Part shown: piece by piece, positions 1-5,821 of the stretch
How positions within the stretch are numbered: position 1 is the stretch's first letter
Layout of the letters: each line of letters starts with the position of its first letter
The notes under the pieces: model-generated
Seen by the model: the letters and a program-made list of their open reading frames with translations, nothing else
Told to the model about the DNA's origin: nothing
Databases searched by the model: none
Virus record (IMG/VR): IMGVR_UViG_3300045988_013492
Location: 1-5,821 of that record
DNA length: 5,821 bases
Direction: 5' to 3' (one strand)
Source: a virus
Translations under genes and position numbers: made by a program

Positions 1-95
1 ATTTTTTTTGTTACATACCCTGCAACATATCTATATGTTTCTGGAACTGCTTGCGCAATCTGTATTTGACCCATTCCCCACAGGTTTGCTAGCCA
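1..95. repeat. Terminal redundancy of a linearised circular genome. Positions 1-95 are identical to 5727-5821, giving a unit genome of 5,726 nt.
   Basis: Direct comparison: the string a + 8 t + gttacataccctgcaacatatctatatgtttctggaactgcttgcgcaatctgtatttgacccattccccacaggtttgctagcca occurs at 1-95 and again at 5727-5821, with offset 5726. Confidence 0.95.
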
Positions 96-662
96 TTTGC
101 TGTTATAGTATCCGTTGTGGTGAATCTTGTATAGATTTTCTAGGTCTGTTGGTTTCCAGCCATATAGAATCATGTGGTAATGCGGTCTTGCTGTCTGCTC
201 TCCGTACTCACCCGCCACAAAATAGCGTAGCTTGCCCCTGTAAGCCTTTCTGAGACGTTTTAAGAATTTCTGAATATCTTCATACAGTAAAATTTGTACG
301 CTTTCTGGGCGCTTCTCTCCCGGCTTCCACGTGTACTGTACTTTGCGCATGATCTCACCTGTTTTTACTATCATGCCCGGTACATGGTCATCATCATAAG
401 TTAGCGTGATAAACCAGACTTCTTCTTTTGGATAGTCTTGTGCTTCCAATTCGATGCGCGTTGTCCAGTCCTCTCGTTGTCTTATTCTGCATCCAATACA
501 TTGCCCGCATGGAATTAACATGACTTTCGGATTATACATCAAATCTTCATACTTTAGCTGTTTCCCGCTTAACTCAGAAAAGCGGGCGAGTGAATATACC
601 CGCCCGCTCTGTTCTTTATCGTCCGGGTTGTACAGCCTTATTAGTGGCTTGTAGCAACTCAT
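1..662 (-). CDS. Replication initiation protein VP4 (HUH rolling-circle Rep), 5' portion. ATG at 662..660. The ORF runs off the window start and continues at 5726..5369 across the circular junction. The full gene is 1020 nt (339 aa).
   Basis: My own translation of complement 662->1 is [96 protein letters not shown]...[13 protein letters not shown]...[11 protein letters not shown]. It joins in frame to the track ORF 5369..5800 ([30 protein letters not shown]...). It carries the gokushovirus VP4 hallmarks: the CGxCxxCR zinc-finger-like N-terminal motif, FITLTY (motif 1), HYHMILY (motif 2, HuHuuu) and YVAGYVTKK (motif 3, catalytic Tyr). The start overlaps the VP2 stop as ATGA, and AGGTGA lies 9 nt upstream. 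Confidence 0.93.
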
Positions 663-4431: not shown

Positions 4432-4815
4432 TTATACCCCCTTTCTGTATCGTTCTTCACGCACATCAATGTGTACAAAGTTTGTGTATTTGATTACGCC
4501 GCCTTGTTCCATGATGCTATCTGCGTATTTTGCAACTTCTTGACTTGAGTGTCCTTTTACTACAATGTCTGCTGCCATTCCTTTGCAGTGCATTGAGTTT
4601 GGTGCTCCGTTTACTTTGCTGTTCCAGCTCGGTGTTCTGTATCCGCTGTTAATTTTTACCGGTGCTTTGAAGTGTTCTCTTATTGTTTCTAGGATTGTTA
4701 ATAGCTCTTTGCAGATTAGCAGTTTTTTGTTTCCGTCTTTGCATTGAAACTCTTTTGCTTTGAAGTGTTGGCTTAGTTTCCCGTAGTCTGCATTGATGTA
4801 TACGATATTTTTCAT
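4432..4815 (-). CDS. Peptidase M15 (Peptidase_M15_3-type zinc D,D- or L,D-peptidase), a putative endolysin of 127 aa starting at ATG 4815. The track's 156-aa model starting at 4902 is probably over-extended.
   Basis: SGYRTPSWNSKVNGAPNSMHCKGMAADI (SxHxxGxAxD, the zinc ligand motif) and the C-terminal FVHIDVRE are the PF08291 signatures. AAGGAG (4826..4821) lies 5 nt upstream of ATG 4815. A sigma70-like promoter sits inside the supposed N-terminal extension. Confidence 0.85.
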   Translation of the reverse strand: MKNIVYINADYGKLSQHFKAKEFQCKDGNKKLLICKELLTILETIREHFKAPVKINSGYRTPSWNSKVNGAPNSMHCKGMAADIVVKGHSSQEVAKYADSIMEQGGVIKYTNFVHIDVREERYRKGV

Positions 4816-4860
4816 GGCTGTCTCCTTTCTTTTGTATTGTGCTCTTTGTGCTTTGTCTAT

Positions 4861-4889
4861 ATTATAGGTTTTGTCAAGCCTTTTTTCAA
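4861..4889 (-). promoter_or_regulatory. Sigma70-type promoter for the peptidase / small-ORF transcript. -35 TTGAAA (4889..4884), 17-nt spacer, -10 TATAAT (4866..4861).
   Basis: I read the '-' strand directly: ATTGAAA AAAGGCTTGACAAAACC TATAAT. The -10 is a perfect consensus, the -35 matches 5 of 6, and the spacer is the optimal 17 nt. The predicted transcription start near 4854 gives a ~38-nt leader containing the AAGGAG. Confidence 0.5.
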
Positions 4890-4980
4890 TATTTGTAATC
4901 ATTTTGTAATATTATCTATGCAAACTGTCAAGGTTGCCGTAGGCAATTTTGACATTTTGCGTAGATGCCCGCGGCAGGCG

Positions 4981-5145
4981 TTTTCAACATTTTCCACATA
5001 GTTTTCAACATTTCAACATTGTTAAACTTTAACACAACAGAGTGTTTCAACATTTCAACAAGTTTTCAACAAATCTTTCAACATTCTTTTTGGTGCTTTT
5101 TCTTCGTACCAACGTAAAGAAAAAGCACTTTTCAACTTTTCCACA
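4981..5145 (+). repeat. Array of ten head-to-tail 9-mer repeats TTTTC(A/C)ACA. Two are exact DnaA-box consensus TTTTCCACA (4990-4998 and 5137-5145). Eight are TTTTCAACA or TTTCAACA variants (4981, 5002, 5011, 5045, 5053, 5063, 5076, 5129). They are arranged as doublets around a perfect dyad, TGTTAAA-C-TTTAACA (5020-5034).
   Basis: Seen in sequence. Copy spacing of 8-12 bp is roughly helical phasing. The region is non-coding on both strands. Confidence 0.8.
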
Positions 5146-5150
5146 TACTC

Positions 5151-5165
5151 TACTACTACTACTAC
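5151..5165. repeat. (TAC)5 trinucleotide microsatellite.
   Basis: tactactactactac, seen directly, in a non-coding region. Confidence 0.9.
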
Positions 5166-5249
5166 AACAAGTTATATAATAAAGGCGAAGTGTTATCCCT
5201 TGAAGCGAAGCGAATAGGGATTATAGGGTAGAACGTACTCTCCATTTTA

Positions 5250-5290
5250 CCGTGCGCGTGTACGTGCGTTTCGCGCGTGCGCGTGCGCGG
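5250..5290. repeat. GC-rich alternating pyrimidine/purine tract, (CG/TG)n, with three copies of GTGCGCG. It can form a 19-bp hairpin (5250-5268 with 5272-5290, TTT loop) made of 14 Watson-Crick pairs plus 5 G.T wobbles. It is a candidate Z-DNA former or origin / single-strand initiation hairpin.
   Basis: I mapped the pairs base by base. Every non-Watson-Crick position is a T opposite a G. Both arms are perfect Py-Pu alternations of 18 nt. The tract sits in an otherwise AT-rich genome. Confidence 0.6.
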
Positions 5291-5309
5291 TCTAACGCCT
5301 TAAGCACAC

Positions 5310-5356
5310 TCTTAAATCAATAAAAGCCCAGTGCCTTACTTGATAGGTACTGGGCT
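5310..5356 (-). terminator. Rho-independent terminator downstream of Rep. The stem is AGCCCAGT / ACTGGGCT (5356..5349 with 5332..5325) with a 16-nt loop. On the coding strand it is followed by TTTATTGATTT.
   Basis: A perfect 8-bp inverted repeat, seen directly. A T-rich run follows immediately on the '-' strand, 13 nt after the Rep stop at 5369. Confidence 0.5.
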
Positions 5357-5368
5357 AGGTGACACTGA

Positions 5369-5821
5369 TTACAAAATACCACGTTTTTTCGTTTGTTTTT
5401 TGGTTACACGCTCTTTGGTCTCTAAGATGGTTTTATAGTCTTGACCCTCTAACTGTAATCTTTTTTGCCCCATTGCGTTTTTCTGTCGGTTTCGCTTGAT
5501 TCTCCATAGTCTTTCCGGGTTTTCTGCTTCCATCTGTTTTTCATAGTACCTTGGAATTTGTGCTTGTTTCCCGTTGGTACACTGAATGTAGCCTTGCTTC
5601 CAGATTTCTGCCTTGTGCTCTTGATAGTAGTGATCTCCGAGACCTGGTTTTAAACTCATGCATGCAAAAGGTTTTGTTTGCCCTAGTTCATAGTATTGAT
5701 TTGCTTTCTTGCCGTCTATTTCGTACATTTTTTTTGTTACATACCCTGCAACATATCTATATGTTTCTGGAACTGCTTGCGCAATCTGTATTTGACCCAT
5801 TCCCCACAGGTTTGCTAGCCA
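5369..5821 (-). CDS. Replication initiation protein VP4, 3' portion (C-terminal 119 aa, plus 31 codons duplicated from positions 3-95). The stop is at 5371..5369.
   Basis: Track ORF 5369..5800. It extends upstream in frame to the window end and is continuous with complement(1..662) once the 5726-nt circularity is applied. The 5726 offset preserves the reading frame. The C-terminus is basic (KRNRQKNAMGQKR...KKQTKKRGIL). Confidence 0.9.
   Translation of the reverse strand, partial: WLANLWGMGQIQIAQAVPETYRYVAGYVTKKMYEIDGKKANQYYELGQTKPFACMSLKPGLGDHYYQEHKAEIWKQGYIQCTNGKQAQIPRYYEKQMEAENPERLWRIKRNRQKNAMGQKRLQLEGQDYKTILETKERVTKKQTKKRGIL

Follow-up and report, generated by a model that had tools for sequence, protein, structure and literature searches.

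What is the function of a short, GC-rich alternating tract in the only large non-coding region of a gokushovirus-type genome, and on which of the two strands does it act? The DNA analysed here, called the window, is the 5,821-nt record IMGVR_UViG_3300045988_013492. It represents a circular gokushovirus-type microvirus genome with a unit length of 5696 nt and a terminal redundancy of 125 nt (window 1-125 = 5697-5821), and VP4 spans the junction. All recognisable genes lie on the '-' strand of the window: VP1 (Phage_F, 3353-1620), VP2 (1543-659), Rep/VP4 (REP_ORF2-G2P, 662-1 and then 5696-5369), an M15_3 peptidase (4902 or 4815 to 4432), and ORF5-like and scaffold genes. Between the stop of VP4 and the peptidase gene is the sole large non-coding region (~4816-5368), which holds the tract; the G+C content of the tract is 76%, against 43.5% for the genome as a whole. 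At the other end of this region a strong promoter-like sequence, TTGAAA-17-TATAAT (11/12), is found at 4861-4889 (-) within the 156-aa peptidase ORF, and the real start of the peptidase is probably the ATG at 4815 (MKNIVY), which has AAAGGAG ahead of it. Peptidase_M15_3 is known in gut gokushoviruses and has been tied to Faecalibacterium (Roux et al. 2012).

Positions 5250-5290 read C CGTGCGCGTGTACGTGCG TTT CGCGCGTGCGCGTGCGCG G. By sequence and folding, the 5' arm (CCGTGCGCGTGTACGTGCG, 5250-5268, '+') pairs with the 3' arm (CGCGCGTGCGCGTGCGCGG, 5272-5290, '+') across a 3-nt loop, TTT (5269-5271, '+'), which interrupts the purine-pyrimidine phase between them. Pyrimidine-purine alternation is perfect in both 18-nt arms (5251-5268 in the 5' arm). 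The stem has 19 pairs, or 20 if A5249-T5291 is counted, and its five non-Watson-Crick positions are all G.T (four T.G and one G.T); in the mRNA sense the same stem carries five A.C mismatches. Folded as DNA, the '+' strand forms the full stem at -17.6 kcal/mol (z -3.15, with 3 of 200 dinucleotide shuffles equally stable), against -8.1 kcal/mol (z +1.6) and no dominant structure for the '-' strand. The corresponding RNA values are -35.6 kcal/mol (z -5.8, none of 200 shuffles as stable) for '+' and -16.9 kcal/mol (z -0.8) for '-'. In a scan of 50-nt windows the GC hairpin is the most stable of the '+' strand, at -19.5 kcal/mol compared with a genome mean of -2.9 (sd 2.4), a distance of ~6.8 sd, and it is absent from the 12 most stable windows of the '-' strand. 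The preliminary description of this locus, a GC-rich alternating tract with a 19-bp G.T-wobble hairpin at 5250-5290, is therefore exact, and its claim of a strand asymmetry (G.T on '+', A.C on '-') holds. Its view that the hairpin is not a terminator also stands: the sequence after the hairpin is TCTAACGCC on '+' and TAAAATGGAGAG on '-', with no T-run on either side, and a terminator scan of the window did not report it. Genome-wide, the '+' strand is no more structured than the '-' strand.

Folding of one sequence has its limits here, as (C/T-G)n arms always pair once G.T is allowed, and composition explains part of the fold, a share that the single-sequence shuffle test understates. The decisive evidence is comparative, and the informative positions of the tract are its rare A residues together with the asymmetry between T and A. 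BLAST of the intergenic region returned 46 phage records, comprising gokushoviruses of the pig, human and monkey gut, of which 14 were read in detail. A two-arm (C/T-G)n tract of ~40-50 nt occurs in all 14 of these GenBank relatives, in the same intergenic region and with differing sequences, flanked by a conserved CTACTAC..CAACAAGTTA block on one side and, on the other, by a conserved hairpin beside the VP4 stop. All related IMG/VR genomes of the window's clade likewise carry a two-arm (YG)n tract of varied sequence, and the tract is also found in a second, only distantly related gokushovirus clade (VP1 33-38% identical).

Pairs were counted in 76 distinct tracts from the two clades, each taken on its T-rich strand and with the register chosen so that G.T and A.C scored equally. 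They comprise 974 G-C, 258 G.T, 78 A-T and 3 A.C pairs, with 4 others; pyrimidine positions hold 415 T and 957 C, and purine positions 129 A and 1181 G. A is opposite T far above the 21% background (Fisher p 2e-45 over the 76 tracts, a value that overstates independence because the sequences are related). Compensatory change in relatives, on which the preliminary description had let its hairpin depend, is evident in the ratio of A-T to A.C pairs in these 76 variants. A central phase break separates the two alternating runs in 71 of 72 tract variants, the runs are within 2 nt of each other in length in 58 of these, and the alternating runs are 12-26 nt long (median 19). There is no conserved loop or flank sequence among the tracts, the loops including TTT, TCTA, CTAT, TTC and ATTAA. 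Taken together, the pair counts, the A residues facing T and the two near-equal arms with a central break indicate that pairing is under selection in one polarity only, and that a single-strand hairpin rather than Z-DNA is what would be selected.

The second clade helps to place this selection at the level of the nucleic acid. There the tract lies within the last ~20 codons of VP4, and its other strand encodes ..ARA-x-NARAR... The window's non-coding tract, when read on the '-' strand, gives AHAHARNARTRAR, which is clearly related to this VP4 tail. Judged by these sequences the tracts are one element, coding in the second clade and non-coding in the window's clade, and since it is coding in one and non-coding in the other, the conserved feature is in the nucleic acid.

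A second hairpin, referred to here as the origin-type hairpin, lies beside the tract at 5325-5356 (+), and is defined by its conservation, its folding and its analogy with phiX174. It has a stem of AGCCCAGTGCCT and AGGTACTGGGCT and the loop TACTTGAT, and folds at -11.3 kcal/mol (z -5.1). At its 3' base and flank (5355-5365, '+') is a CTAGGTGACAC box that is conserved across the Gokushovirinae and stands in register with CTATAGACCAC of the phiX174 origin. The alignment of the phiX174 origin (CAACTTG/ATATTAATAACACTATAGACCAC, the slash here and below marking the nick) with the origin-type hairpin is free of gaps; ACTTGATA is identical at the nick, and CTA and CAC, 12 nt downstream, are likewise in register. 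The two differ in that the phiX174 motif is inside the rep gene, whereas the gokushovirus motif is in the loop of a 10-14 bp intergenic hairpin and, in the window's clade, on the non-coding strand. According to the phiX174 GenBank record, viral-strand synthesis starts at the A after AACTTG. By analogy, the origin-type hairpin would be the best candidate for the Rep nick site, with the nick predicted between G5342 and A5343 (motif ACTTG/ATA, 5338-5345).

The same element (stem, (T)TACTTGAT, stem, CTAGGTGACACC) was found in Chlamydia phage Chp2 and in 42+16 uncultured gokushoviruses, with looser versions in phiMH2K (loop CTACTTGTTG) and SpV4. Most relatives have no T-run on the coding strand after this hairpin, which argues that it is not simply a terminator of VP4. 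It is almost perfectly Watson-Crick (G.T 13, A.C 7) and so carries no independent strand signal. A search for its sequence in 185,579 genomes, made with the host in view, gave no match. The main clade also has a block on the coding strand, at 5173-5162 (-), that may be a further nick-like motif (AACTTG/TTGTAG), opposite in strand to the first. The block reads AACTTGTTGTAGTAG, of which the part ACTTGTTGTA recurs in the origin-type hairpin loop of phiMH2K; it lies ~170 nt from the first nick motif, points away from it, and is not present in the second clade.

The orientation of the origin-type hairpin differs between groups of gokushoviruses. In Chp2 and 58 other genomes it is on the strand of VP1 and VP4. 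It is opposite to the genes in the window, in the 14 GenBank and 39 IMG/VR relatives (the former oriented by their depositors' own VP4 annotation) and in most of the second clade, and in rough neighbour-joining trees of VP1 and VP4 these two 'inverted' clades fall apart from each other. The polarity of the GC tract goes with the orientation of the origin-type hairpin. Of the 78 genomes in which both were identified none is discordant: the G.T-forming (T-rich) polarity of the tract is on the origin-hairpin strand in every one, an agreement that amounts to about three independent lineages, so that the raw count overstates its statistical weight. Within each lineage the tract sequence keeps changing while the polarity stays constant.

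The sole informative reversal of polarity comes from one tight subclade of six genomes (L267, L268, L270, L271, L272 and L279), which have the origin-type hairpin on their coding strand. In this subclade the tract is in the same VP4 codons as that of the sister genomes, but where the sisters vary between G and A on the coding strand (GCA and CAC codons) it varies between C and T (CGT codons), a switch of the tract on that strand from CA-type to TG-type. Folding agrees with this, L279 giving -15.8 in the coding polarity and -11.2 in the other, compared with -11.8 and -16.1, respectively, for L254. The same subclade contradicts a rule that had at first appeared to hold, namely that (YG)n tracts occur only where the origin hairpin is antisense to the genes (0 of 42 genomes with the coding-strand hairpin, as against all with the antisense one). 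Further members of this type were sought without additions, as a pattern scan of metagenomes gave chance matches only and protein-based retrieval yielded none. One member, L270 (the same contig as L328), has 7809 nt with two copies each of the origin-type hairpin and the GC tract, ~4.3 kb apart, and looks like a more-than-unit-length (concatemeric) assembly of two slightly different copies.

For the six-genome subclade, base composition of the whole genome was considered and rejected as an explanation of the TG polarity, since its coding strands are still A-rich (AT skew +0.19 to +0.26) and yet carry a T-type tract. The coding strand of the window is also A-rich and T-poor (A 38%, T 18.6%), and its AT skew of +0.34 exceeds that of all 42 ordinary gokushoviruses, whose coding strands range from -0.30 to +0.22. 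When referenced to the origin-hairpin strand all gokushovirus groups are T-rich, the AT skew being -0.10 (range -0.30 to +0.22) in the ordinary gokushoviruses and -0.34 and -0.38 in the two tract clades; the value for phiMH2K is +0.29, on the strand that has both its genes and its origin-type hairpin.

What, then, is a hairpin that follows the origin and not the genes likely to do? In a microvirus the one nucleic acid that stays single-stranded for long is the circle that is displaced and packaged, and a hairpin selected in one polarity, which keeps to the origin hairpin rather than to the genes, most simply belongs to that circle. Replicons of single-stranded DNA all require a signal for complementary-strand initiation. 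In gokushoviruses no such signal is known (PMC9865509). With this need, and with the hairpin being the strongest local structure, we tentatively favour the view that the tract folds as a strand-specific DNA hairpin when the strand with the origin is a single-stranded circle, and that it most likely signals where the complementary strand is to be initiated, a view that we put somewhat short of an even chance. The origin or priming hairpin that the preliminary description had offered beside a structured RNA is still the better half of its proposal.

In this mechanism Rep (VP4) would nick the loop of the neighbouring hairpin at its ACTTG/ATA motif, and rolling-circle synthesis would then displace the '+' strand, antisense to all genes. 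On the displaced strand the 19-20 bp GC stem would snap shut, free of single-strand-binding protein, and the folded stem may mark the start of complementary-strand synthesis by the priming machinery of the host, for which primase, a PriA-type primosome and RNA polymerase are candidates. The complementary-strand origins of G4 and phiX174, and the single-strand origins of rolling-circle plasmids, act in this way. The G.T pairs would then be C-to-T changes tolerated on the folding strand, while G-to-A changes would persist only if a T compensates. The single-strand origins of rolling-circle plasmids usually sit just 5' of the nick, and the tract is 52 nt 5' of the predicted nick in the window. 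Like these origins, it folds in one polarity on the origin strand, the strand displaced being deduced from homology with phiX174.

The probable identity of the packaged strand would follow from the same observations. The preliminary description had taken '+' for the complementary strand that is not packaged, and this is probably wrong; since the phiX174-like nick hairpin is on '+' and the polarity of the GC hairpin follows it in 78 of 78 genomes, '+' is more probably the strand that is nicked, displaced and packaged, and the hairpin would form on virion DNA. To our knowledge, all characterised Microviridae package the coding strand. That the '+' strand of the window is the virion strand, antisense to all genes, is accordingly a claim to which we give slightly less than even credence. 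The same credence extends to the wider proposal that the strand replicated and packaged by the window's clade, and by most of the second, is the one antisense to their genes, with the (C/T-G)n hairpin as complementary-strand origin, and that gokushovirus origins have changed orientation relative to the genes on at least two occasions, with the wobble polarity rewritten by point substitutions on each. Several observations count against a complementary-strand origin, namely the lack of an excess of structure on '+', the lack of wobble asymmetry in the origin-type hairpin and the second nick-like motif on the coding strand. The distance from tract to origin-type hairpin, which varies from ~20 nt to ~1 kb among genomes, and the lack of a conserved loop sequence count against it also, and it leaves unexplained the strict purine-pyrimidine alternation, which a priming hairpin does not need.

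The non-coding region of the window holds several other features. At 4982-5145 (+) are 10-11 copies of TTTC[A/C]ACA in a single orientation, when ~6 are expected genome-wide on both strands; this array, which includes two exact relaxed DnaA boxes (TTTTCCACA) at 4990 and 5137 (+), looks like an iteron or DnaA-box cluster. From the second of these boxes a block extends over 5137-5183 (+), in which TTTTCCACA is followed by a 4-nt spacer, (CTA)5 and the AT-rich CAACAAGTTATATAATAAA; in the 14 relatives the spacer is constant in length and variable in sequence. CTA is the start triplet of Firmicute primase. The basal unwinding system of bacteria consists of a DnaA box, a short spacer, DnaA-trios and an AT-rich region (PMC8287927), and the block at 5137-5183 has the same order and orientation. 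Directly 5' of the block, at 5093-5128 (+), is a perfect 12-bp inverted repeat (GTGCTTTTTCTT and AAGAAAAAGCAC, with a 12-nt loop) that is kept in several relatives. Just upstream of the main '-' promoter, at 4914-4964 (+), is a long hairpin of ~23 pairs, three of them G.T on '+', whose inner part (4926-4954) scored as terminator-like on '+' with a T-run. Perfect 10-nt inverted repeats at 4892-4910 and 5366-5377 (TTTGTAATCA and TGATTACAAA; ATTTTGTAAT and ATTACAAAAT) flank the whole non-coding region, and could be due to chance or a trace of inversion of an origin cassette.

Among the alternatives, the one that survives best would give the tract a part in the viral-strand origin within the double-stranded replicative form. 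As an auxiliary element, the '+' strand would extrude its hairpin on melting while the '-' strand stays single-stranded, so that the bubble is locked open and one strand is presented to replication proteins. One-sided foldability is just what such a device would need, and many main-clade tracts abut an AT-rich block that comes after DnaA-box-like repeats and (CTA)n, a layout that resembles the bacterial basal unwinding system (PMC8287927). In the second clade, however, the tract is inside the VP4 ORF, with neither AT-rich nor box context and ~1 kb away from the origin-type hairpin, and between tract and AT-rich block the window and some relatives have 65-130 nt of sequence with other hairpins in it. 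We consider such an auxiliary role, triggered by the opening of a nearby AT-rich segment by Rep, supercoiling or host DnaA, unlikely.

It is distinctly unlikely that the tract is instead a Z-DNA or cruciform element of the supercoiled replicative form, in which CG/TG arms absorb or signal superhelical stress near the origin and promoter. Classic formers of Z-DNA are (CG)n and (TG)n, and the arms of every variant are perfect alternating purine-pyrimidine runs of 18-26 nt, rich in G+C, a strictness that is otherwise unexplained; each 18-nt arm of the window exceeds the ~12 bp of uninterrupted G+C-rich alternation expected of such DNA, and Z-DNA formation in the replicative form is physically possible. 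But Z-DNA is strand-symmetric, TG and CA steps being equally acceptable to it on either strand, and it does not predict 258 G.T against 3 A.C pairs, A opposite T, or a polarity linked to the origin hairpin, while a central phase break and two near-equal arms in 71 of 72 variants are the layout of a hairpin. The preliminary description was right to call the arms Z-DNA-type in their perfect alternation, but it does not appear to be as Z-DNA that they are selected. A cruciform would be penalised by the 3-6 A.C mismatches in its other arm, and the tract differs from a perfect palindrome, in which both strands fold, in that its '-' strand has no dominant fold.

A structured RNA, the other half of the earlier proposal, fares less well and is in our opinion very doubtful. 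A '+' transcript antisense to the 3' end of VP4 could regulate Rep or serve as primer RNA, and the tract is indeed at or just past the VP4 3' end in both clades; its RNA hairpin is very stable, and G.U pairing is typical of RNA stems. Against this, there is no sigma-70-like promoter site upstream on '+' (a TATAAT at 5175-5180 has no -35 box) and no terminator after the hairpin, and a search of the whole window with Rfam 15 covariance models at E up to 1 found no match overlapping 5200-5400. In the L267/L279 subclade, moreover, the polarity flips to the sense strand with the origin hairpin while the genes stay fixed, which is unexpected for an antisense regulator. Least probable of all is a functionless relic, in which a (GCN-CGN)n Ala-Arg tail of VP4, as still encoded by the second clade and echoed by the '-' reading of the window, has turned non-coding and owes its shape to slippage of dinucleotides and to a strand bias in C-to-T mutation; against this, the full-length two-arm hairpin persists with A-T compensation in >45 diverged non-coding variants and the polarity of the L267-type tract opposes the composition of its genome.

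Gokushovirinae are the most abundant single-stranded DNA phages of the gut. In the literature searched, coverage of which was incomplete and whose silence is absence of evidence only, there was no description of the GC hairpin, the origin-type hairpin or an origin inversion, and neither the viral-strand nor the complementary-strand origin was defined for this subfamily. The phiX174-like nick hairpin and the strand-specific GC hairpin offer concrete candidates for both origins, and the wobble polarity of the latter may serve as a reporter of which strand is single-stranded. If the proposal is true, it is the non-coding strand that is packaged in a common group of microviruses of the human and pig gut; these would be the first 'negative-sense' Microviridae, overturning the 'positive-sense' definition of the family, with consequences for strand-aware virome methods, analyses of mutation bias and annotation.

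Comparison with characterised systems helps to define what kind of element the tract may be. With d(CG)n and d(TG)n Z-DNA tracts it shares perfect alternation, high G+C and arms long enough to flip under negative supercoiling, but unlike these elements it has a break in mid-phase, equal complementary arms and a strong strand asymmetry of T versus A. It is closer to the complementary-strand origins of single-stranded DNA phages. The G4 oric stem-loops (primase), the phiX174 n'/PriA primosome-assembly hairpin and the M13 ori(-) hairpins are likewise stable hairpins of one strand and, as the tract appears to be, are situated on the displaced strand at a site outside the origin and are kept by structure rather than sequence. 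It differs from them in being a single short stem of almost pure (C/T-G)n with no internal loops, in lying inside a coding region in one clade, and in the putative nature of its priming role; G4 has a CTG start site and M13 promoter mimicry, neither of which the tract has. The single-strand origins of plasmids (ssoA, ssoU, ssoT and ssoW) have in common with it orientation specificity, folding in one polarity and a position just 5' of the nick. These, however, are imperfect palindromes of 130-200 nt with RSB and CS-6 motifs, and family-specific motifs of this kind (RSB and CS-6 of ssoA, the G4 CTG start beside stem-loop I, a PriA site) are all absent from the tract. On this comparison we infer that the tract, lacking the known sequence motifs, would be a single-strand origin-type hairpin of simpler architecture, recognised by its fold and by the strand on which that fold can form.
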